Virus genome (UHGV): UHGV-1592266 | Origin: a virus | Length of the DNA: 17,097 bases | Strand: one strand, 5' to 3' | Shown: one piece after another, positions 1 to 13,141 of the stretch | Position numbering within the stretch: position 1 is the first letter of the stretch | How the letters are laid out: the number at the start of each line of letters is the position of its first letter | The notes under the pieces: generated by a model | Seen by the model: the letters and a program-made list of their open reading frames with translations, nothing else | The model's database searches: none | What the model was told of the DNA's origin: nothing | Program-made: the position numbers and the translations under genes

Positions 1-723
1 ATCGTCAGTAACTGCCCACCATTTGTTTCTCGACCAATCGTAATACCCTTCGAAGGTATCGCACTCAGTCCAGCCGTAAGACTTACCCCAACACCAAACA
101 TACTGTTTATCGTTCGGCATTCGCTCACTACAGCTTATCCAACCATCCGGAGTTACCGGATAGTTGCCACCCTGAACAGTAGGCATATCCGGACCTTTGC
201 GAATCGCCCTGGCAAGATCGATTTGGTCGTCGTACAACCAGTCACCTGTTTGCGGATTATTTGCTTCTGCCAATTGTGCAGCCCACTCCAGGCCGTCTTT
301 GTGTCCTTGCAGATAGTCCAGCGGTAACTCATCACTATTACTTACAGGTTCGGCCTGAAGCATGGCGGCGCGATAGGCGGTCCAGCCGACAGCTTTTCCG
401 TGTTCAAACGCGCTGTCAAAGTCATCATCAATTTCCATCGCAGCGGGCACAGATACCGGCGCTGGCGGGGCGGTGTAGAGCGGCATTACCTCAATATTGA
501 AGATATCCCCCTCGCTTGGACACGCCTCTGCGCTACCGTAAACCCAAGGGTGAACGACTCCGTTACGCTTGTTGATTAATCTGTGCGCCCACGCCACAGG
601 CTCCGCTTCGAGCGATGCCAGCGCGATACGCGCCAGCGCCGAAGCCTCACCGCATTGAACGTGGTCAGTTTCGATAATTTGCTGTAACTGCTCTTTGGTG
701 AATTCTCTGGTAATAGTGCTCAT
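1..723 (-). CDS. ea-region protein with a DUF551-like Trp/Cys-rich C-terminal part; 3' end cut by the window edge
   Basis: Absent from the supplied track because no stop is reached. ATG at 723 follows GAGGA by 7 nt. My hand translation is open for all 241 codons down to position 1 (MSTITREFTKEQLQQIIETDH...GWISCSERMPNDKQYVWCWGKSYGWTECDTFEGYYDWSRNKWWAVTDD). The C-terminal pattern resembles DUF551 modules of lambdoid ea regions (from memory, unverified). Track ORFs 153..335 and 261..500 lie inside it in other frames. Confidence 0.7.
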   Translation of the reverse strand, partial: MSTITREFTKEQLQQIIETDHVQCGEASALARIALASLEAEPVAWAHRLINKRNGVVHPWVYGSAEACPSEGDIFNIEVMPLYTAPPAPVSVPAAMEIDDDFDSAFEHGKAVGWTAYRAAMLQAEPVSNSDELPLDYLQGHKDGLEWAAQLAEANNPQTGDWLYDDQIDLARAIRKGPDMPTVQGGNYPVTPDGWISCSERMPNDKQYVWCWGKSYGWTECDTFEGYYDWSRNKWWAVTDD

Positions 724-1257: not shown

Positions 1258-1526
1258 TGGGCGGTTCCTTCGTAACCGATGGCTTCTGCAATTTCAGCAA
1301 GTGTCTCTGCACTTTCACCCACTGGCTCATTCATCCAGTCGAAGGAAACAAGCTTACCGCCTTCGATAACGCCGATGTTGAAATCATCACTACCTTGTGT
1401 TTTCAGACCATGCTTGATTGCCTTATCGCGCTTATCGAAGTCAACGCCGTCTGTCGTGTATTCAACTCCATGGCCTTTCTCGTTGCACCACCAGTACTGC
1501 TGAATAACGATGTATGATTTGCTCAT
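1254..1526 (-). CDS. hypothetical protein, 90 aa
   Basis: Full-length track ORF. ATGA overlaps at both ends tie it into the operon. No family recognised. Confidence 0.65.
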   Translation of the reverse strand: MSKSYIVIQQYWWCNEKGHGVEYTTDGVDFDKRDKAIKHGLKTQGSDDFNIGVIEGGKLVSFDWMNEPVGESAETLAEIAEAIGYEGTAQ

Positions 1527-2590
1527 AGCGCGGCTCCCTGTCGTAACTGGTCGGCGAGTTCGAATTCACCATGGTTAGTAAATTCGCCTGCAAGTTTTTC
1601 TCTTAGCTTCATAACGGCTTCCTTTGCGCTTTCGATATCCTTATGGTGCCCTGCGCTGTACTTCTTCCCGTTAAATTGAACGCTTGCTACATATCGCTTA
1701 TCGCGCTTATTCCAATAGACCCCCTTGACACCAGTGGTGTTATTTTTCTGGGTTGGTTTGTTGAATTGATTCTGCGATAGAGAGCAAAGGCGCAGGTTTC
1801 TTATGCTGTTGTCTTTCTTGATGCCATTGATATGGTCGATAGGCTGGGAAGGCCATTCTCCGTAATGTAGAAGCCATGCTAGACGGTGAGCAAAGCACTT
1901 CTTGCCAAACAGCGAAAAGGCGTAATAGCCCTGCCAAGTTTGAGAGCCAATAATTGCTCCTTCCTGACGACCTGCAAAGTTGACTTTCGCGGTAAGAACT
2001 CCAGTTTCAGGGTTGTAGTCAATAAGGTCTCTGATATCGCCAACAGACATGAGCAGATTCTTATTAAGGATTTCAATTTCCTTCTGGAGTGGTTCAGATG
2101 CCTCACGCCTAACTTCAGCCAGGAAAGCATCGGTGGCTGGGGTTTTGTTATCTGACTCCAGCCACTGGTTGTAGTAATAATCGAACATGCCAGTAGGATA
2201 ACCACATCCGCCGTGCACGTGGTCTTTCATAGCAGAACCACACATGCAGTAGTCATTGTCAGTATTACTAATGATGTTGATAAGTTGCTGTGTCCGTTGC
2301 TTCAACATCGCATTCTCCGCCGCCAGCGCCGAAAACTTCTCGTGTGCCAACTTAACAGCTGCATCAGCCTGCTTAATTGACTCAGTCGCTTTCTGGTGGT
2401 CTTCGGCCAGCCCTGCTAAATCAGCCTCCAGTTCGGCTAGGCGTTCATTTAATGCATCTCGTTCATCCAGTAGAGCCAGCACAACCTGAGGTGTTACTTT
2501 CATACGAAATGCCAGCAATTTTTGAGGTGTTGCTACTGTTTCAATTGCTACTGCTGCCTCACGCAGTACCTGATAGTCAATCTTGCTCAC
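1523..2590 (-). CDS. Ea22-like N-terminal scaffold fused in frame to an HNH endonuclease plus AP2 DNA-binding module (355 aa)
   Basis: GTG start in a GTGA overlap with the upstream stop. Residues 1-165 are an Ea22-like coiled coil with CMCGSAMKDHVHGGCG. Residues ~185-335 read GYYAFSLFGKKCFAHRLAWLLHYGEWPSQPIDHINGIKKDNSIRNLRLCSLSQN (HNH_3 pattern), then TGVKGVYWNKRDKRYVASVQFNGKKYSAGHHKDIESAKEAVMKLREKL (AP2 pattern). The tail ELADQLRQGAAL matches the tail of paralogue 2587..3168. Confidence 0.85.
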   Translation of the reverse strand: MSKIDYQVLREAAVAIETVATPQKLLAFRMKVTPQVVLALLDERDALNERLAELEADLAGLAEDHQKATESIKQADAAVKLAHEKFSALAAENAMLKQRTQQLINIISNTDNDYCMCGSAMKDHVHGGCGYPTGMFDYYYNQWLESDNKTPATDAFLAEVRREASEPLQKEIEILNKNLLMSVGDIRDLIDYNPETGVLTAKVNFAGRQEGAIIGSQTWQGYYAFSLFGKKCFAHRLAWLLHYGEWPSQPIDHINGIKKDNSIRNLRLCSLSQNQFNKPTQKNNTTGVKGVYWNKRDKRYVASVQFNGKKYSAGHHKDIESAKEAVMKLREKLAGEFTNHGEFELADQLRQGAAL

Positions 2591-6178: not shown

Positions 6179-6207
6179 AAAAAAATTGCCCTCACACTGG
6201 AGGGCAA
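6179..6207 (-). terminator. intrinsic terminator inside the pL operon
   Basis: The minus strand reads TTGCCCTC-CAGTGT-GAGGGCAA followed by TTTTTTT: an 8-bp GC-rich stem (6186-6193 / 6200-6207) and a U-tract (6179-6185). Confidence 0.75.
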
Positions 6208-6298
6208 AGAAGATTTCCAATAATCAGAACAAGTCGGCTCCTGTTTAGTTACGAGCGACATTGCTCACATAGCAGACTCGCAAATCTGCTATAGGTGC

Positions 6299-6460
6299 TT
6301 ATTCGCATCGCATGACAACATCAAATTTTTCGAGATTACTTTGTCGCAACAATCCCTCTTCTACGCGGTCAGCTTTTCTATAATTATCAAATTCGAAATG
6401 TTTAATTACTTCTTTCGTTTCTCGCTCTATAACTTCAACAATGTATTTCTTATTCATCAT
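6299..6460 (-). CDS. small hypothetical protein, 53 aa
   Basis: The ATG at 6460 (MMNKKYIVEVIERETKEVIKHFEFDNYRK...) forms an ATGA overlap with the stop of 6457..6735 and follows GGGGGAAG. The longer track start is embedded in the upstream gene. Confidence 0.6.
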   Translation of the reverse strand: MMNKKYIVEVIERETKEVIKHFEFDNYRKADRVEEGLLRQSNLEKFDVVMRCE

Positions 6461-6735
6461 TCTTCCCCCAGGGCCTTGCTGATGGCTGCCTTGGCTCGTT
6501 TGTATTCGGTTAACTCTCTGCACCCTTCGTCATGCTCGTAAAGGAAGACAAGCTCTTGCAGTGCTTCAAGCAAATCAGGAGCTGCTGCTATCAGTAGCGC
6601 ATCCTCCCTTTCATTTCTTGTTGCTGCTTCAATGTATGTGTCACCAATCGTCACACCATGGAACGTAGTCATCATCTCGTTGACGTTTCTAACCGTGTAC
6701 TTCCATTTACCAGGCGTACCCTTAAACTCTTTCAT
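6457..6735 (-). CDS. small protein resembling an Ea22 C-terminal domain (92 aa); paralogue of 7256..7507
   Basis: ATG at 6735 (MKEFKGTPGKWKY...) follows GAGGTG. It shares AAPDLLEALQ and KA..AISKALGEE with ORF 7256..7507. Confidence 0.75.
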   Translation of the reverse strand: MKEFKGTPGKWKYTVRNVNEMMTTFHGVTIGDTYIEAATRNEREDALLIAAAPDLLEALQELVFLYEHDEGCRELTEYKRAKAAISKALGEE

Positions 6736-6738
6736 ATC

Positions 6739-6783
6739 CACCTCTGTTGTTTATGCCAAAAATAAAGGCCGACTATGCGGCCT
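6739..6783 (-). repeat. copy A of a directly repeated ~45-bp linker (terminator plus RBS)
   Basis: The plus strand reads cacctctgt..ttatgccaaaaataaaggccgactatgcggcct. The 33-nt stretch 6751..6783 is identical to 7525..7557, and cacctctgt (6739-6747) is identical to 7512-7520. Confidence 0.9.
6753..6783 (-). terminator. intrinsic terminator (inside linker copy A)
   Basis: The minus strand reads AGGCCG-CATAGT-CGGCCT followed by TTATTTTTGG. The hairpin overlaps the TAG stop of ORF 6782..7252. Confidence 0.7.
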
Positions 6784-7252
6784 AGTAGAATACCCAATTT
6801 TCTGTTTCTTGGTTGTGTCCAAAGTTATATTCAATATCTGGTGTTGATGTATCAATATTCTTCATCCCATCAACAAGAGTTGATACAACAGCCAAATCTT
6901 GTTTGATTCTCATCAAATGGTATTTCTTCCGGCGCAATAAACTTTCAATGGCAAGTTTCTTCGTCGGGAACGCAAAAGATCTTTCTGCATTTTTTGCTAC
7001 TTTCTTAATTGCATATCTATTTCTCCTTTGTTTCCATTCCTGTAACCACTGATTTGGTGCTGGTTTAAAATTAACAATCCAATGCGCAGGAACCAACCAT
7101 GCATAATGCTCTGTCTGATGAAAAGCTATATATTGAAGTGCGAATATTTTGATTCCATCTTCTTCAACTGTCGCTTGGAATCTCCAGAAAACAGGCATTC
7201 CATCATGTTCAGTTTCTGATTCAGGAAAAGGTACGCTCCATGATTTTGTCAT
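6782..7252 (-). CDS. hypothetical protein, 156 aa, AT-rich orphan
   Basis: Full-length track ORF lying between the two linker copies. It has a Trp/His-rich N-terminal half and a basic middle (KQRRNRYAIKKVAKN, LLRRKKYHLMRIK). No family recognised. Confidence 0.7.
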   Translation of the reverse strand: MTKSWSVPFPESETEHDGMPVFWRFQATVEEDGIKIFALQYIAFHQTEHYAWLVPAHWIVNFKPAPNQWLQEWKQRRNRYAIKKVAKNAERSFAFPTKKLAIESLLRRKKYHLMRIKQDLAVVSTLVDGMKNIDTSTPDIEYNFGHNQETENWVFY

Positions 7253-7255
7253 ATA

Positions 7256-7507
7256 TTACTCATCTCCAAGGGCTTTGCTGATTGCTGACTGTGCTTTCGA
7301 TACTTCATCAGGATAATGGTCATTCCAGTTTTGCTTGTATGCCTTGTTTAGCATCGCTTGCAGGGCTTCGAGCAAATCAGGAGCTGCCTCCATCAATCTC
7401 ACATCACCTCGATGGATGGTTGTATCGTCAAACGTGAAATAAACCCCATCATCGTTAAATCCAGCGCCAACAACATTCCATGGCCTTTTCATTCTTCCTA
7501 CTGTCAT
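7256..7507 (-). CDS. small protein resembling an Ea22 C-terminal domain (83 aa); paralogue of 6457..6735
   Basis: ATG at 7507 follows the linker GAGGTG. MEAAPDLLEALQAML and KAQSAISKALGDE match the paralogue. Confidence 0.75.
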   Translation of the reverse strand: MTVGRMKRPWNVVGAGFNDDGVYFTFDDTTIHRGDVRLMEAAPDLLEALQAMLNKAYKQNWNDHYPDEVSKAQSAISKALGDE

Positions 7508-7511
7508 TATT

Positions 7512-7557
7512 CACCTCTGTGTATTTATGCCAAAAATAAAGGCCGACTATGCGGCCT
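7512..7557 (-). repeat. copy B of the directly repeated ~45-bp linker
   Basis: See copy A. The two copies are in direct orientation, 774 bp apart. Confidence 0.9.
7528..7557 (-). terminator. intrinsic terminator (inside linker copy B)
   Basis: Same AGGCCG-CATAGT-CGGCCT hairpin plus TTATTTTTGG, 4 nt after the TAA of ORF 7562..8011. Confidence 0.7.
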
Positions 7558-7561
7558 GAAA

Positions 7562-8011
7562 TTACTTAACCAATGATGCTGCATATTCGATAAGGTAAAG
7601 CTTTGGGGCCAGCCAAATTTTTAACCAAGTCATATTGGTTACTACACCAATAATAAAAATCCCCCACAGAGTCAAAACTACAACCAATGGCATGATAAGA
7701 AGATTAATATCACCTTTGCTATCCCAAACCATTGTCGGCCTGTATTTGGGATTTCCTTTCTCCCATGAATATCCTTCATCACCGATTTTACCTGTCTCAA
7801 CTCTTTGGCACTGCTTCTTCATAAACCAGAAAACCAGTGGGATTGTTAAAATGGCCATTAATGTTTTAATCAGACTGTCAACCATATTCCATAGCAGCAA
7901 CTGATGAACAACATCAGGAATCTGTGCCTGGCTGAATGAAACAGCCGCGTCTATTCCATTACTGGCTTTTTGCAGTAGTTCTACGAGAATCTTGTTTGCT
8001 TGTTCTTCCAT
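7562..8011 (-). CDS. predicted two-pass inner-membrane protein, 149 aa, unknown function
   Basis: Internal ATG at 8011 (MEEQANKILVELLQK...) follows GAGGTTAGAT. Hydrophobic spans are LLLWNMVDSLIKTLMAILTIPLVFWFM and INLLIMPLVVVLTLWGIFIIGVV. The longer track start overlaps the upstream small ORF. Confidence 0.75.
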   Translation of the reverse strand: MEEQANKILVELLQKASNGIDAAVSFSQAQIPDVVHQLLLWNMVDSLIKTLMAILTIPLVFWFMKKQCQRVETGKIGDEGYSWEKGNPKYRPTMVWDSKGDINLLIMPLVVVLTLWGIFIIGVVTNMTWLKIWLAPKLYLIEYAASLVK

Positions 8012-8019
8012 ATCTAACC

Positions 8020-8184
8020 TCAAATAAGTGGTTTGCTGCGAAAATAAATACGTTCCCACCAAGTTCCGTATCTATCTATCCAGTTACACCAATCATCGAC
8101 ATTCCATTTTGTTGTGTCGCATTTTGGCAACTGGCATGAATATCCACCTTCTTTGTAAAGTCGGCGTTTGACTTTCTTGAGCAT
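8020..8184 (-). CDS. small Trp/Cys-rich protein, 54 aa, immediately downstream of N
   Basis: Below the track cutoff, so hand-translated. GAGGTGAGCC precedes the ATG at 8184, and that SD overlaps the N stop. Product MLKKVKRRLYKEGGYSCQLPKCDTTKWNVDDWCNWIDRYGTWWERIYFRSKPLI, TGA at 8020-8022. Confidence 0.6.
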   Translation of the reverse strand: MLKKVKRRLYKEGGYSCQLPKCDTTKWNVDDWCNWIDRYGTWWERIYFRSKPLI

Positions 8185-8192
8185 GGCTCACC

Positions 8193-8525
8193 TCAATCGT
8201 AATAAGCTGGAATTGATTTTCCGCGTTGCTTCTGGCGGCCTGAGCAAGTCACACCCATTTCACTGCGTGGCTTGCTGTACCATGTGCGCTGATTCTTGCG
8301 CTCAATACGTTGCAGGTTGCTTTCAATCTGTTCGTGGTATTCAGCTAGCACCGTAAGGTCTATAGGATTCAGTGCGCTTTCTACTCGTGATTTCGGTTTG
8401 CGATTCAGCGAGAGAATAGGGCGGTTAACTGGTTTTGCGCTTACCCCAACCAACAGGGGATTTGCTGCTTTCCATTGAGCCTGTTTCTCTGCGCGACGTT
8501 CGCGGCGGCGTGTTTGTGCATCCAT
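8193..8525 (-). CDS. N: antitermination protein N, lambda type
   Basis: MDAQTRRRERRAEKQAQWKAANPLLVGVSAKPVNRPILSLNRKPKSRVESALNPIDLTVLAEYH... matches lambda N, including the arginine-rich motif. Only the last ~25 residues differ from my memory of lambda N. Lambda-type boxB sites are present at both nut sites. Confidence 0.95.
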   Translation of the reverse strand: MDAQTRRRERRAEKQAQWKAANPLLVGVSAKPVNRPILSLNRKPKSRVESALNPIDLTVLAEYHEQIESNLQRIERKNQRTWYSKPRSEMGVTCSGRQKQRGKSIPAYYD

Positions 8526-8793
8526 CTGGATTCTCCTGTCAGTTAGCTTTGGTGGTGTGGTGGCTGGTAGTCTAGCTCCAGCTTGTTGAGTCTCATTCGG
8601 AGGGGTATAACCGGCACCCCAGCGATTTTTCCATGCGACAACGTGCGCGTTATGGCGGCCTTATCGCCCGCGGCTCCCCATCTCGTCCACGCTATTGCTA
8701 GCGTTGGGAGCGCTTCACCGCTCAACAGTAGGTAAGCACTTGCCAGTGACTAGCTGGCTTCACCACACCCCAAAGCCTTCTGCTTTGAATGCT
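8526..8793 (-). promoter_or_regulatory. N leader (5' UTR) with a long closing helix and several internal hairpins; larger than the lambda leader
   Basis: On the minus-strand RNA, GGUGUGGUG (8761-8769) pairs with CACCACACC (8554-8562), enclosing ~190 nt. Internal hairpins include ACGCUA-GCAA-UAGCGU (GNRA loop), GAGCG-GUGAAG-CGCUC, GGGGU-N9-ACCCC and GGCG-N7-CGCC. A long-range GUUGAG/CUCAAC pairing is also possible. The N SD (AGGAG) follows at 8532-8536. Confidence 0.5.
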
Positions 8794-8824
8794 GCCCTTC
8801 TTCAGGGCTTAATTTTTAAGAGCA
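8794..8824 (-). promoter_or_regulatory. nutL (boxA plus boxB)
   Basis: The minus strand reads TGCTCTTAA AAATTAA GCCCTGAAGAAGGGC. BoxB at 8794-8808 is the lambda nutL boxB. BoxA at 8816-8824 differs at its first base from the CGCTCTTA of nutR. Confidence 0.9.
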
Positions 8825-8868
8825 TCACCTTCATGGTGGTTAGCGCGTCCTGCTGATGGCTTAAAATT

Positions 8869-8936
8869 ACAAGAAAGATTGTATACTGTAAACAAGAAAT
8901 ATTGTAAAAAGAGGCGTGAAAAACAAACTCCGTTGT
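8869..8936 (-). promoter_or_regulatory. oL operators (three ACAA-N6-TTGT sites) and pL
   Basis: ACAAGAAAGATTGT at 8869-8882, ACAAGAAATATTGT at 8892-8905 and ACAAACTCCGTTGT at 8923-8936 all fit the 434 operator consensus. A candidate pL on the minus strand is TTTACA-N17-TATACA spanning the two proximal operators; the exact hexamers are uncertain. Confidence 0.75.
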
Positions 8937-8963
8937 TTTTAAACGGAAAATAGTTTGTTTTTT
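8921..8963 (-). terminator. candidate t-imm terminator ending the PRM transcript (hairpin flanked by T-runs on both strands)
   Basis: AAACAAACT (8921-8929) pairs with AGTTTGTTT (8952-8960), and inner CCGTT (8930-8934) pairs with AACGG (8942-8946). U-rich tracts follow in both directions. It lies 24 nt after the hex-locus stop and overlaps the distal oL site. Confidence 0.45.
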
Positions 8964-8986
8964 GGTTATCGAGATTGAGGTGGGGA

Positions 8987-10339
<1,353 letters not shown>

Positions 10340-10771: not shown

Positions 10772-11416
10772 ATGACATACGAAAATGACAAATTCCAGGT
10801 TCTGAAGAGCATGAAGGTGCCAGATGATTTTAAATCAAATGGCTTTGTTTATGTGCTTTCTAATGAGTGCATGCCAGGAATTTATAAGATTGGGATGACT
10901 AAGCATTCACCAGAAGTTAGGGCTAAAGAAATTTCAGCCTCTACTGGCGTTCCTAAGCCATTTAAGGTGATAGCAGCCTTTCATTCAAATAATCCCGCAT
11001 CAGATGAAAAACTCATGCATAAAGCCTTTGCAAAAGAGAGGCTTAGTGATAATCGAGAGTTTTTCAAGCTTGAAGATAATGAGCTTTCTGAATCTCTAAA
11101 TGAAATAAGGGCGCTGGTTGGCCCTGAAAGAAATGGCGAGACGGCAGAATACGCAATTTACGACTCATTCATTTCTTTTCGCCATGAAAATGAGCTTGAT
11201 CTTAATGAGGAGCTTATAGAGCAAGGTCTGGGTAGTGTAGTTGGTCATCTTCCTGCGGTGAAAAATTTCCTTATTCGCGCCGGAATTGATTACGCGAAGC
11301 AACTGATAAGCAAATATAACTCATCGATAGTTATTAATACAGATGGCAGTGTGGTGATGGTTAAGTCTCTTGAAGCCCAATGCTTTGATGCGGAGGTTGG
11401 AAATGAGCCTGGCTGA
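10772..11416 (+). CDS. T5orf172/MUG113 (GIY-YIG-superfamily-like) domain protein, 214 aa, inserted between cII and O
   Basis: AGGAG lies 5 nt before the ATG. GFVYVLSNECMPGIYKIGMTKHSPEVRAKEISASTGVPKPFKVIAAFHSNNPASDEKLMHKAFAKERLSDNREFFKL fits the T5orf172 pattern. I recognise no family for the C-terminal ~110 aa. Confidence 0.8.
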   Translation: MTYENDKFQVLKSMKVPDDFKSNGFVYVLSNECMPGIYKIGMTKHSPEVRAKEISASTGVPKPFKVIAAFHSNNPASDEKLMHKAFAKERLSDNREFFKLEDNELSESLNEIRALVGPERNGETAEYAIYDSFISFRHENELDLNEELIEQGLGSVVGHLPAVKNFLIRAGIDYAKQLISKYNSSIVINTDGSVVMVKSLEAQCFDAEVGNEPG

Positions 11417-12245
11417 AGTATTTTACCTGTCGAAGAGTGAACCTGTTGAACAGGAGCGAAGAGTGGCTGATATCGATGATGGTTACACCAGATTCGCTAA
11501 CGAGCTGCTGGAAGCTATCGCAAGTGCTGATTTAACCGCTCGCCAGTTGAAAGTTATGCTGGCCTACGTCCGGAAAACATATGGATTCAATAAGAAAACA
11601 GATCGAATAGCCGATGAGCAAATTGCTCAGTTAACAGGACTGTCAAGGCAGAATGTTAACAAGGCTAAAAAAGAACTGATTTCAATGAATTGCCTGTTTA
11701 TGGATGGAAATCAAATCGGTGTAAACAGTGAGGTATCTGCGTGGCAATTCAGCAAGTGTCTCCAAGTTAGCAACTTTGTCTCGAAGTTAGAGACAAAAAA
11801 TGTCTCCAAATTAGAGACACTCAATGTCTCGAAGTTAGAGACACACAAAAGACATTCTTTAAAGACAAAAGAAAATATTAATAAACCCCCTATATCCCCC
11901 AAAAAAGTTTCTCAGAAGTTCGACCCGCTAGAAACAGAGTTGCCTGATTGGTTATCAGCAGAAACATGGTTGTCGTGGGTTACCTATCGCAAGGAGATAG
12001 GTAAGTCGATCAAGTCTAAGCAAAGTGTCACTCAGGCTATCAACGTTCTAAGCAGAAGTCTGGAGAAGGGATATACACCTGAAGAAATTATAAACCAGAG
12101 CATCGCCAGTGGTTGGCAGGGGATTTTTGAACCCAAGACTCCAAAGGGGAAATCTCAACCGAGGCCGCAGCAGCGAGCTATGCAGGAAAACTTTGCCGCC
12201 AAAGATTACGGGCAAACTGAAATGCCTTCATGGGCGCAGGAGTGA
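11403..12245 (+). CDS. O: lambda O-type replication initiator
   Basis: ATG at 11403 follows GGAGGT. DDGYTRFANELLEAIASADLTARQLKVMLAYVRKTYGFNKKTDRIADEQIAQLTGLSRQNVNKAKKEL is the Phage_rep_O N-terminal domain pattern. The iterons lie within the gene, as in lambda. Confidence 0.9.
   Translation: MSLAEVFYLSKSEPVEQERRVADIDDGYTRFANELLEAIASADLTARQLKVMLAYVRKTYGFNKKTDRIADEQIAQLTGLSRQNVNKAKKELISMNCLFMDGNQIGVNSEVSAWQFSKCLQVSNFVSKLETKNVSKLETLNVSKLETHKRHSLKTKENINKPPISPKKVSQKFDPLETELPDWLSAETWLSWVTYRKEIGKSIKSKQSVTQAINVLSRSLEKGYTPEEIINQSIASGWQGIFEPKTPKGKSQPRPQQRAMQENFAAKDYGQTEMPSWAQE
11757..11843. repeat. replication origin iterons (four 19-bp units)
   Basis: TGTCTCCAAGTTAGCAACT (11757), TGTCTCGAAGTTAGAGACA (11777), TGTCTCCAAATTAGAGACA (11801) and TGTCTCGAAGTTAGAGACA (11825). 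Units 2-4 have inverted TGTCTC/GAGACA arms. The spacing is 20, 24 and 24 bp. Confidence 0.85.
11844..11905. other. AT-rich unwinding region of ori
   Basis: cacaaaagacattctttaaagacaaaagaaaatattaataaacc... lies directly after the iterons, the same layout as lambda ori. Confidence 0.7.
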
Positions 12246-12247
12246 AT

Positions 12248-13141
12248 ATGAATACGACAAATGGTTACAATCTGGCACTGCAAAGGCAACTTGTAGACTC
12301 AAAAATCAATGACATTTCTGATCTGAAACAGAAACTTGAGTTTAGCAAAATTGGATCAGCATCAGATGGAATGTCAGTTACCAGCACAGTGGAAGAGTGC
12401 GAGAAACACGGTAAATATACTTCCTATGAGAAATATCTGACCATCTCAGGAAAAAGAATTACTTCAAGTAAATCTGAGTGCCCACAGTGCCTTGAGGAGA
12501 AAATTCGTAAGAAAGAGATTGAACGTGAGCAGGCAGAACAAAGAGCAAGACAATCAAAAATTGAATATTTGTTGAATTCTCTCAATATTCCAGAGAGGTT
12601 CAAAAATTGCACTCTTCAGAATTATGAGCCTGTTAACGATGATGCAAAGCGAGTTCTTAAGGTATGCCAGGCATATGCCAGTAAGTGGCCTGAACGCCTT
12701 CAGAAAGGTGGCGGACTGGTCATGTGTGGTAAGCCTGGAACTGGAAAGAACCACCTTGCACTGGCTATCGCTAGGCACGCCATTATCGAGCATCAAAGCT
12801 CTGTGATATTTACCACTGCGTTGAAAATTGCCAGAGAGTACAAATCAACATGGTCTAAGGCCGCAACCAGAACTGAAGAAGAAGTCATTAGGCAATTTAC
12901 GCATCCTGACTTGTTAATAATCGATGAGGTTGGCGTGCAGTTCGGCAGTGATGCTGAAAAGCTAATCATGTTCGAAATTATCAACACCAGATATGAATAC
13001 ATGAAGCCAACAATCCTGATTAGTAATCAGAGCAAAGATGAACTTTCGGCATTCATTGGTGAGCGTGTTATTGACAGGATGAATGATGGCGGCGGATGCA
13101 CCCTTGCGTTTACATGGGATAGTTACAGGAGCAGATCGTGA
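12248..13141 (+). CDS. DnaC/IstB-like AAA+ helicase loader with an N-terminal Cys/His cluster
   Basis: ATG at 12248 follows GGAGTGAAT. Walker A is GKPGTGKNHLA and Walker B is LLIIDEVG. An IPERFKNCTLQNY motif resembles DnaC. The N-terminal CEKHGKY...CPQC may form a zinc ribbon. Confidence 0.85.
   Translation: MNTTNGYNLALQRQLVDSKINDISDLKQKLEFSKIGSASDGMSVTSTVEECEKHGKYTSYEKYLTISGKRITSSKSECPQCLEEKIRKKEIEREQAEQRARQSKIEYLLNSLNIPERFKNCTLQNYEPVNDDAKRVLKVCQAYASKWPERLQKGGGLVMCGKPGTGKNHLALAIARHAIIEHQSSVIFTTALKIAREYKSTWSKAATRTEEEVIRQFTHPDLLIIDEVGVQFGSDAEKLIMFEIINTRYEYMKPTILISNQSKDELSAFIGERVIDRMNDGGGCTLAFTWDSYRSRS

Follow-up and report, generated by a model that had tools for sequence, protein, structure and literature searches.

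A T4 gp55.4-like small gene and a mosaic two-TM membrane gene are neighbours, but seldom companions, downstream of N in a 434-immunity lambdoid prophage

The segment directly downstream of the antitermination gene N in a 17,097-nt stretch of UHGV virus genome UHGV-1592266 (hereafter the window) had been described, in an initial annotation made from sequence alone, as a compact two-gene unit of the superinfection-exclusion, abortive-infection or anti-defence type. Our analysis rejects a two-gene defence module and identifies the region as ordinary mosaic DNA within the early-left operon of a lambdoid prophage. The best account, to which we assign a probability of about 80%, is that cassette shuffling at a conserved linker juxtaposed two accessory genes that belong to the early-left (PL) operon and are unrelated to each other. 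Here, we establish the identities of the small ORF and of the membrane gene, the mosaic structure of the locus, and the lack of linkage between the two. Each gene falls in a family that had been catalogued before, and the annotation of the Sf6 counterparts, genes 36 and 34, dates from 2004. The outcome is mostly negative: a candidate "new defence module" is removed, and the close coupling seen in it turns out to reflect no more than a small deletion. For annotators of phage dark matter, it draws attention to a very small protein family common to T-even and lambdoid phages and to a large membrane family that lacks a Pfam model and has conserved termini around a swappable hairpin.

Table 1. Features of the early-left segment, in window coordinates unless residues are stated
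Feature	Position	Strand	Basis or remark
Putative PL promoter (-35 TTTACA, -10 TAATTT) with two 434-type OL operators	8864..8905	(-)	Read from sequence; promoter assignment putative
OL operator ACAATATTTCTTGT	8892-8905	(-)	
OL operator ACAATCTTTCTTGT	8869-8882	(-)	
nutL boxB hairpin GCCCTGAAGAAGGGC (N-utilisation site)	8794..8808	(-)	Sequence
Antitermination protein N, 110 aa	8193..8525	(-)	Pfam N36, E 1.6e-26
Linker copy 1 TTGAGGTGAGCCATG: N stop, SD, small-ORF start	8182..8196	(-)	Pattern search
Small ORF, 54 codons	8020..8184	(-)	DUF5484 / phrog_1871 match
Small-ORF codons 1-43, DUF5484 / T4 gp55.4-like core	8056-8184	(-)	
Small-ORF codons 44-54, read-through tail	8020-8055	(-)	TAA stop loss
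Linker copy 2 TTGAGGTTAGATATG: small-ORF stop, SD, membrane-gene start	8009..8023	(-)	Pattern search
149-aa two-TM protein, phrog_3054	7562..8011	(-)	PHROG profile and hydropathy
Membrane protein, conserved N-terminal segment	N-terminal ~45 aa		
Membrane protein, TM1	residues ~46-64		
Membrane protein, variable loop	residues ~65-104		
Membrane protein, TM2	residues ~105-124		
Membrane protein, conserved amphipathic C-terminal helix	residues 128-149		
Intrinsic terminator: 6-bp stem 7540-7557 followed by TTTATTTTT; U-run 7530-7539	7524..7557	(-)	
Identical second copy of the 34-nt terminator element	6750..6783	(-)	Ends the following two-gene cassette (ORFs of 83 and 156 aa)

The early-left setting

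The host element is a 434-immunity, P22-like/lambdoid prophage, in which both ORFs are encoded on the minus strand and follow a lambda-type N (Table 1). Its immunity region includes hex, a gene co-transcribed with cI. The membrane gene belongs to the PL operon, with N to one side of it and Erf to the other. The Sf6 record annotates the form ACAAnnnnnnTTGT as a 434-type operator. N itself, annotated as such in Sf6, SfI, and BEN2908, carries the N36 arginine-rich motif, consistent with the nutL boxB hairpin, which we take to be identical with lambda nutL boxB; our terminator scan flagged this same hairpin as plus-strand terminator-like. No ral is present between N and the terminator in this window, and an Rfam search of positions 6200-9200 found no RNA family. 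Scanned against Pfam, NCBIfam, and PADLOC, the two proteins and those around them yielded DUF5484 for the small ORF and nothing else. Papers describing the genomes of epsilon34 and L, both P22-like phages, state no more than that the function of most early-left genes is not known.

Several features of the earlier description were borne out. The block is AT-rich relative to N (GC 40% in the small ORF and 39% in the membrane gene vs 50% in N, with 45.6% for the whole window), and the pair does end at an intrinsic terminator, a hairpin followed by a U-run with a folding energy of -12.3 kcal/mol (z = -2.0). The segment after N is variable and, as had been stated, non-essential territory: both genes are real and conserved, and ral occupies this segment in Sf6. 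Moreover, the terminator is the first one downstream of N and is also kept after Sf6 gene 34.

Our scans detected no minus-strand terminator between boxB and position 7557 and no sigma-70-like site on the minus strand from 7560 to 8200; these are consensus scans, which can miss Rho-dependent terminators and weak promoters, so we can only infer the timing of expression. The position of both genes, downstream of nutL and ahead of the first terminator after N, makes it most likely that they are produced with N and not in the lysogen. We propose that, alongside N, both would be expressed within minutes of infection or induction, and that each protein would most likely act alone, in the lytic programme.

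The small gene, a gp55.4 homologue that has lost its stop

The small ORF was found where it had been reported, with its Shine-Dalgarno sequence (GAGG) overlapping the N stop (gatTGAGGTGAGCCATG). The same arrangement, directly 3' of N with the SD over the N stop, is shared by all 79 lambdoid loci inspected, which makes translational coupling with N likely. The predicted protein scored 41.5 bits against Pfam PF17583 (DUF5484; cutoff 27, E 1e-10), with residues 5-42 aligned to model positions 3-41 of 43, and matched phrog_1871 over residues 1-43 with an E value of 4.4e-21. A tblastn search retrieved 912 phage records, and about 900 T4-like phages hold the gene. These data confirm that the ORF, whose conservation had been in question, is a gene, and since the membrane ORF has a family-level protein match as well, both are clearly beyond chance.

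The small protein shares ~50% amino acid identity with the genes of T4-like phages and 91-95% with the copies in Sf6, SfI, and mEpX1. Its residues 1-43 correspond to the full length of the family formed by T4 gp55.4, Sf6 gene 36, SfI gp44, and the mEpX1 homologue, with which it has in common a conserved basic N-terminus and the motif PKxDTTxW..DW..ID..G.W. In the alignments, K6, R7, L9, K11, G13, K21, D23-T24-T25, W27, D31, and W32 are conserved residues that it shares with the T-even members. By these sequence matches, the small ORF is a lambdoid homologue of T4 gp55.4 (DUF5484, phrog_1871). The surroundings differ between the two branches: the lambdoid gene is fixed directly after N, and the T-even gene belongs to the nrdG-55 cluster of small ORFs.

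The window allele has 54 codons vs 43-45 in the family. The canonical lambdoid gene has 45 codons (...WWDK-TAA) and is followed by a 54-nt spacer. Compared with Sf6 and BEN2908, 20 nt including the TAA are replaced here by 1 nt, a net loss of 19 nt. Because the stop is lost, reading runs on through the spacer to a TGA inside the SD of the next gene, leaving 8 nt before the membrane-gene ATG (8011). The 54 codons and the 8-nt spacing that had been noted are therefore correct for this window but allele-specific. Among 80 IMG/VR copies, 68 encode 45 aa and 9 encode 54 aa, and these 54-codon alleles precede various genes. The length of 54 aa is thus an allele trait and no argument against DUF5484 homology. 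The AF2 model had a pLDDT of >90 over residues 1-43 and of <50-66 over the tail, which predicts a core of ~43 residues folded as an alpha-beta-alpha-beta mini-protein and a disordered added extension of 9 residues.

The composition had been described as rich in Trp and Cys. We counted the three Cys residues reported but five Trp residues instead of seven. A Cys-based zinc site was considered and rejected: the three Cys residues are present only in the lambdoid branch and correspond to L/S, G, and I in the T4-like homologues. The ORF had also been called unannotated, which is true of E. coli BEN2908 (PGAP) and of phages phi458 and N7 and does not apply to Sf6 (gene 36), SfI, and mEpX1. We found no mention of DUF5484 in the literature and one of gp55.4, merely as a transcript; peptide strings of both proteins were absent from the main texts of papers.

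That the ORF is no gene at all, and serves as a mere spacer or linker downstream of N, is extremely improbable. PGAP skips it in BEN2908, and the lambdoid copies show low diversity and a weak third-position excess (3, 7, and 9 variable sites at codon positions 1, 2, and 3), a count drawn from too little diversity to inform. Against this stand the strong SD, the DUF5484 score above the gathering threshold, the phrog_1871 match, the identity and conserved motif shared with the T4-like genes, and the confidently modelled fold. As for its role, we tentatively suggest a cytoplasmic protein that may bind or inhibit a host factor and so serve either takeover of the host or counter-defence.

The membrane gene and its exchangeable hairpin

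The initial annotation placed a 149-aa protein with two hydrophobic spans 8 nt after the small ORF, as we also find; its soluble N-terminal part before the first span is ~45 residues long, not ~35. All 149 residues align to phrog_3054 (model positions 1-137 of 137, E 1.1e-64). In a PHROG scan of diverse relatives, 46 of 46 matched phrog_3054 and none matched a PHROG of assigned function, and every one of 516 homologue clusters bears the name "hypothetical." At 50% identity, this large stand-alone family falls into at least 2,563 clusters. Among its best 150 representative clusters, the membrane proteins measure 100-184 aa, with every hit within 70-184 aa, and no informative domain fusion was seen. 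Members include Sf6 gene 34, the HF4s "TM helix-containing protein," SPN9CC AEW47744.1, Shigella phage B2 gp83, and Vibrio phage 1.245.O gp68. The family extends to the early/middle regions of virulent N4-like phages and to Vibrio and Klebsiella phages; in N4-like phages and STGO-35-1, the gene is found among nucleotide-metabolism, RusA, and RNA-polymerase genes.

Conservation is concentrated at the two ends of the protein, where an N-terminal segment and a C-terminal WLKIWxAPKxYLxEYAAxL helix, with the family motif WLKIW(L/I)APKLYLIEYAASLVK, flank the hydrophobic spans. The window protein is 97% identical to the HF4s and Gally copies. Compared with Sf6 gene 34, the first ~115 nt of the gene are 100% identical, the centre is unalignable, and the 3' end is conserved together with the terminator. 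The hairpin and loop are wholly different among the 149-aa, 140-aa (Sf6), and 120-aa (SPN9CC) variants, and the charge of the loop varies, from RKRRED in STGO-35-1 to NKGDDAD in SPN9CC; a positive-inside analysis of topology gave inconsistent results among variants. Judged by these alignments, the membrane gene is an intragenic mosaic whose two-TM hairpin appears freely exchangeable between conserved helical termini.

The profile and structure searches that had been proposed for both proteins were productive for the small ORF and led to phrog_3054 only for the membrane protein. Pfam gave no family at E<=1 for the membrane protein, nor at E<=5 for seven relatives. Its AF2 model reached a pLDDT of 65 (low confidence) and had no Foldseek match with E<1 in BFVD, and profile searches of PDB sequences returned no match. 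For neither family was there a structural or profile match to any characterised protein.

Linkage and possible roles

If the two genes formed one small-soluble-plus-membrane-protein module for exclusion, abortive infection or anti-defence, they should be found together. Their organisation here invites this reading, as they are neighbours on one strand, separated by 8 nt and served by one terminator, and adjacency recurs in three IMG/VR loci and in E. coli BEN2908. Co-occurrence, however, is limited to 9% of membrane-gene loci and 15% of small-ORF loci, with adjacency at ~4%: in IMG/VR, 71 of 78 membrane-gene loci have no small ORF within 3 kb and 62 of 73 small-ORF loci have no membrane gene, with three adjacent cases in each set. 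After the small ORF and the linker comes a 28-aa acidic ORF and then ral in 33 loci, a 156-aa ORF in 12, an 83-aa ORF in 11, an 87-aa ORF in 6, a 60-aa ORF in 4, and the membrane gene in 3-4, so that the conserved spacer and linker precede at least six alternative genes. The order in Sf6 is N, gene 36, ral, gene 34, with ral separating the two; in HF4s, N is followed directly by the membrane gene; and in SfI, N, the small ORF, and ral follow one another and the membrane gene is absent. About 900 T4-like phages have the small gene without the membrane gene, and the converse holds for N4-like, Vibrio, and Klebsiella phages. No phage record contained 80% or more of the block, and of 5,426 complete E. 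coli genomes only 2 did; it is contiguous only in BEN2908, which has the 45-codon allele. The close spacing itself is a deletion product. These data largely refute the module, which we regard as very improbable: of the compact unit with its own terminator, the terminator stands and the functional unit does not. The genes assort independently, and their adjacency here is a chance of recombination.

The linker pattern has only two matches in the window by pattern search, and these repeats bracket the small ORF; in HF4s, the same linker connects N straight to the membrane gene. We propose that this conserved ~15-nt SD-ATG linker (TTGAGGTGAGATATG) is the cassette-shuffling site that brought both genes together. 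A similar organisation is described for the "boundary sequences" of lambdoid phages and for cassettes of the moron type (Juhala et al. 2000, as cited in PMC2629481), in which short conserved linkers and terminators likewise act as exchange points; bsq features are present in the Sf6 record. Of the moron features, a downstream terminator is present and an upstream promoter of its own was not found by consensus scan, which points to operon-embedded cassettes and not to autonomous morons.

With the genes uncoupled, the membrane protein has to be considered alone. A prophage-expressed protein of the SieB/SieA kind, protecting the lysogen by exclusion or abortive infection, would suit a small inner-membrane protein at the position of sieB in lambda and P22, and a variable centre is what an arms-race protein should have. 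The neighbourhood downstream of N and the non-essential, accessory character are indeed shared with SieB and Ral. Nevertheless, neither ORF matches the SieB or Ral models of Pfam, NCBIfam, and PADLOC, and Ral is a separate gene in Sf6 and SfI, between or after the two genes. For the membrane protein, we found no Pfam SieB, Imm, or holin match at E<=1, no PHROG holin match, and no PADLOC match. In lysogens, sieB is expressed from a promoter of its own; in contrast, the PL orientation and the lack of any promoter-like site upstream in the consensus scan, which can miss weak promoters, suggest that the membrane gene would be silent there. The virulent N4-like phages that carry the family form no lysogens, and the 434 immunity region already has a cI-co-transcribed gene in hex. 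We therefore consider a SieB/SieA-like protein improbable and, more generally, a prophage-expressed exclusion or abortive-infection role unlikely for the two genes, as no promoter-like site precedes either one, PL is repressed in the lysogen, and the membrane family is present in virulent phages; the genes being unlinked, the module claimed for them is not sustained. An anchor or organiser of an early intracellular process, tethering replication or recombination like phi29 p16.7, seems no better a candidate. The nucleotide-metabolism, RusA, and RNA-polymerase neighbours in N4-like phages and STGO-35-1 are in its favour, as are conserved soluble or amphipathic termini around a hairpin exchanged like a generic anchor, but no nucleic-acid-binding or other known domain was found in the protein, the 150 best representatives show no fusions, and a gene that is optional and often absent in lambdoid phages would be unusual as a core replication helper. 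Least credible is a role in lysis, whether as a holin, an antiholin or another regulator: at 149 aa and with two TM segments, the protein recalls class II holins, yet the gene lies in the early-left operon outside the late lysis cassette, and BEN2908 has a lambda-family holin elsewhere in the prophage.

Under our preferred account of two independent early accessory genes, an early role at the envelope is probable for the membrane protein, for instance neutralising a membrane-associated host factor. By analogy with T4 Imm (PF14373), likewise a small early phage inner-membrane protein with two TM segments, it might conceivably block further phage DNA entry, although we hold this to be doubtful; the analogy is functional only, with no sequence or profile similarity, and Imm lacks long conserved soluble termini. 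More speculatively still, the membrane family might be an unrecognised class of early envelope effectors with the hairpin and loop as a specificity cassette. If so, the variable part might track the entry machinery of competitors, as in superinfection immunity, or belong to an inhibitor of membrane-bound defence effectors. Separately, the gp55.4-like mini-protein might be a widely conserved protein that inhibits some host factor.

The 120-aa variant SPN9CC AEW47744.1 ("orf47") was one of the 200 accessory genes screened by Silas et al. (bioRxiv 10.1101/2023.04.06.535777) and is absent from the reported hits. This is weak evidence against a strong phenotype in counter-defence or toxicity; the screen was, per its authors, poorly powered for protective phenotypes. 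As this variant has already been cloned, the membrane family is cheap to test.

Layout and expression of the locus

The relevant genes at the locus all read on the minus strand, and the window carries a phage 434-type immunity region, with PL flanked by 434-type operators. Hex (Sf6 gene 38), a secreted-looking protein of 134-158 aa with 98.5% identity to the "repressor protection protein" of phage 434 and lambda imm434, is encoded directly downstream of the cI-like repressor; hex, not the small ORF or the membrane gene, is co-transcribed with the repressor in lysogens. The scan also called a plus-strand terminator at the position of boxB, which is probably a by-product of boxB symmetry, since on the minus strand this hairpin forms the nutL site.

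Features of the window
Feature	Position	Strand	Remarks
cI-like S24/HTH repressor	9388-10020	-	immunity region, 434-type
hex, 434 "repressor protection protein" gene	8987-9391	-	immunity region
hex terminator	8928-8948		own terminator of hex
Putative PL promoter, two ACAAnnnnnnTTGT operators	8864-8905	-	downstream of 434-type immunity region
nutL boxB hairpin, GCCCTGAAGAAGGGC	8794-8808	-
N	8193-8525	-	Pfam N36, E 1.6e-26
Small ORF, 54 codons	8020-8184	-	GAGG overlapping N stop codon
149-aa membrane ORF	7562-8011	-	ATG 8 nt past small-ORF stop
Hairpin and U-run	7530-7557	-	terminator scan
34-nt terminator element, TTTATGCCAAAAATAAAGGCCGACTATGCGGCCT	7524-7557; 6750-6783	+ (as written)	identical copies
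83-aa ORF	7256-7507	-	phrog_1273
156-aa ORF	6782-7252	-	phrog_1636; starts MTKSWSVPFP
94-aa ORF	6457-6741	-	paralogue of 83-aa ORF
49-nt direct repeat	6555-6603; 7357-7405		82% identity
355-aa ORF	1523-2590	-	Ead/Ea22-like N terminus, HNH_3 and AP2 domains
214-aa ORF	10772-11416	+	T5orf172/MUG113 domains
IstB/DnaC-like replication gene	12230-13141

The initial annotation, which placed two ORFs after N with a Shine-Dalgarno (SD) sequence over the N stop, an 8-nt gap and a terminator after the membrane gene, was essentially correct as a description. Both ORFs have a GC content of 39-40%, compared with 50% for N. Between boxB and 7557, the scan found no terminator on the minus strand, so the first intrinsic terminator downstream of N is the hairpin at 7540-7557, in a position equivalent to that of lambda tL1. 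No promoter-like site was detected within the block of the two genes. Both would be made together with N as soon as infection or induction occurs, and would be silent in a repressed lysogen.

Independent assortment of the small ORF and the membrane gene

The interpretation of the two genes as a two-gene module is refuted by their distribution, as they assort independently both in IMG/VR loci and in known phages. In the 78 IMG/VR loci that carry the 149-aa membrane gene, the small ORF was absent within 3 kb in 71, adjacent in 3 and further off in 4. Conversely, 62 of 73 small-ORF loci had no variant of the membrane gene, which was adjacent in 3 and non-adjacent in 8. Known phages represent every combination: the order is N, small ORF, ral, membrane gene in Sf6; N directly followed by the membrane gene in HF4s; and N, small ORF, ral, without the membrane gene, in SfI. 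The complete block of N, small ORF and membrane gene was found at ≥80% in no INPHARED phage record and in just two complete E. coli genomes out of 5,426, contiguously only in BEN2908. The small ORF lies directly after N in all 79 lambdoid loci; its linkage is to N rather than to the membrane gene.

The tight 8-nt spacing is real, but it is the by-product of a small deletion. In Sf6 and BEN2908 (...tggtggga-TAAATAACAGGTAACTTAAG-cgtattta...), the small gene ends WWDK-TAA and is followed by the canonical 54-nt spacer. The window reads ...tggtggga-A-cgtattta... at this site; the stop is lost, and translation thus runs through the spacer (ERIYFRSKPLI) to a TGA within the SD of the next gene. IMG/VR copies have 45 codons in 68 of 80 cases and 54 codons in 9, and the genes downstream of the 54-codon copies vary, in line with a deletion by-product. 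A 60-aa small-ORF variant from a Logan contig (P0123), compared with window 8020-8070, has the same stop-less junction and reads the spacer in a different frame (…IDTELGGNVFIFAANHLFEVRYGIS), continuing into the 5' end of the membrane gene. This shows that no protein-level selection acts on the tail.

Linker and terminator repeats

The conserved spacer and linker (…cacttatttgaggtgagatATG) precede at least six different genes. After the small ORF, these are a 28-aa acidic ORF followed by ral (33 loci), a 156-aa ORF of the same family as that in the window (12), ORFs of 83 aa (11), 87 aa (6) and 60 aa (4), and the membrane gene (3-4). The 15-nt linker, an SD-ATG stretch, occurs exactly twice in the window, on either side of the small ORF, and once in HF4s, between N and the membrane gene; this pattern is the signature of a cassette gained or lost through recombination at the linker. 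The extremely acidic 28-aa ORF (MEEEFEEFEEHPQDVMEQYQDYPYDYDY), the commonest partner of the small ORF (33/77 loci), lies between it and ral in Sf6 (L001, 3100-3190) and in IMG/VR loci; it is without annotation in Sf6, lambdap47-like in SfI and missing from the window. In the 12 IMG/VR loci, the 156-aa ORF directly follows the linker as an alternative occupant of the membrane-gene slot.

Terminators double as cassette boundaries here. The distal copy of the 34-nt element closes the next two-gene cassette after the membrane gene, and the element is also kept after Sf6 gene 34. Since two 100% identical copies bracket the cassette of the 83- and 156-aa ORFs, we suggest that it was gained by recombination at these boundary sequences. 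The 83- and 94-aa paralogues, which contain the direct repeat, have a common C-terminal AAPDLLEALQ...AISKALG(D/E)E segment.

Protein families and possible roles

The small ORF is a real gene, and its family is known but uncharacterised. Profile searches placed it in Pfam DUF5484 (score 41.5 bits, with the cutoff at 27) and phrog_1871 (E 4e-21), with both matches limited to residues 1-43. Homologues were found by tblastn in 912 phage records, ten of them lambdoid or P22-like (including Sf6 gene 36, SfI, mEpX1, N7, phi458 and CurroJimenez) and ∼900 T4-like, where the homologue is gp55.4 in the nrdG-55 small-ORF cluster. Alignment with the T-even homologues gave a signature of a basic N terminus and PKxDTTxW..DW..ID..G.W. 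The ORF has five Trp, rather than the seven initially counted; its three Cys are substituted in the T-even homologues, which rules out a Cys-based metal site and makes the Cys-rich character a trait peculiar to the lambdoid branch. In the AF2 model (17-sequence alignment), residues 1-43 adopt an alpha-beta-alpha-beta mini-fold, predicted with confidence (pLDDT >90), while residues 44-54 form a tail predicted to be disordered; a structural-neighbour search returned no match.

The membrane protein belongs to phrog_3054 (E 1e-64), with no match in Pfam, NCBIfam or PADLOC. Its close relatives form 516 clusters across Enterobacteriaceae, every one named "hypothetical." A profile search gave 2,563 clusters at 50% identity; all matches listed are 70-184 aa long and carry no fused domains. 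The family occurs in 178 phage records (tblastn), among them virulent N4-like phages (including Shigella B2 gp83 and Vibrio 1.245.O gp68), in which early/middle genes surround it. The N-terminal ∼45 residues, a soluble segment initially put at ∼35, and the C-terminal ∼22 (WLKIWLAPKLYLIEYAASLVK) are highly conserved (majority-residue fractions 0.89 and 0.92), with variable TM1, loop and TM2 (0.48-0.68) and a loop of about 8 to about 70 residues. Alignment of the gene with Sf6 gene 34 shows 100% identity over the first ∼115 nt, an unalignable center, and identity again over the last ∼30 nt and the terminator; the gene is an intragenic mosaic. Charge bias settled no membrane topology, and the AF2 model was weak (pLDDT 65).

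Both genes are ordinary, already-catalogued accessory cassettes; papers on P22-like phage genomes give no known function for most early-left genes. By analogy, the best precedent for the membrane protein is an envelope-level role in the lytic phase, such as T4 Imm-type superinfection immunity, to which we give a modest probability; it resembles Imm in being small, early and two-TM, and its family is also found in virulent phages. A host-factor binder for takeover or counter-defense, likewise of modest probability, would be the best precedent for the gp55.4-like mini-protein. Silas et al. tested a set of 200 accessory genes (bioRxiv 10.1101/2023.04.06.535777, Supplementary File 3) that included a 120-aa membrane-family variant from SPN9CC (AEW47744.1, "orf47") and no member of the gp55.4 family. 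orf47 was absent from the reported conditional-lethal or host-sensitizing hits, in a screen whose power for protective phenotypes was limited according to its authors. phrog_3054 could possibly represent an unrecognized class of early envelope effectors.

Elsewhere in the window, the 355-aa ORF resembles the eaE-HNH homing-endonuclease fusion of phage epsilon34 gene 31 (PMC2629481). The 214-aa ORF, immediately past cII and preceding the IstB/DnaC-like gene, may be a homing-endonuclease-like element inserted into the early-right operon.
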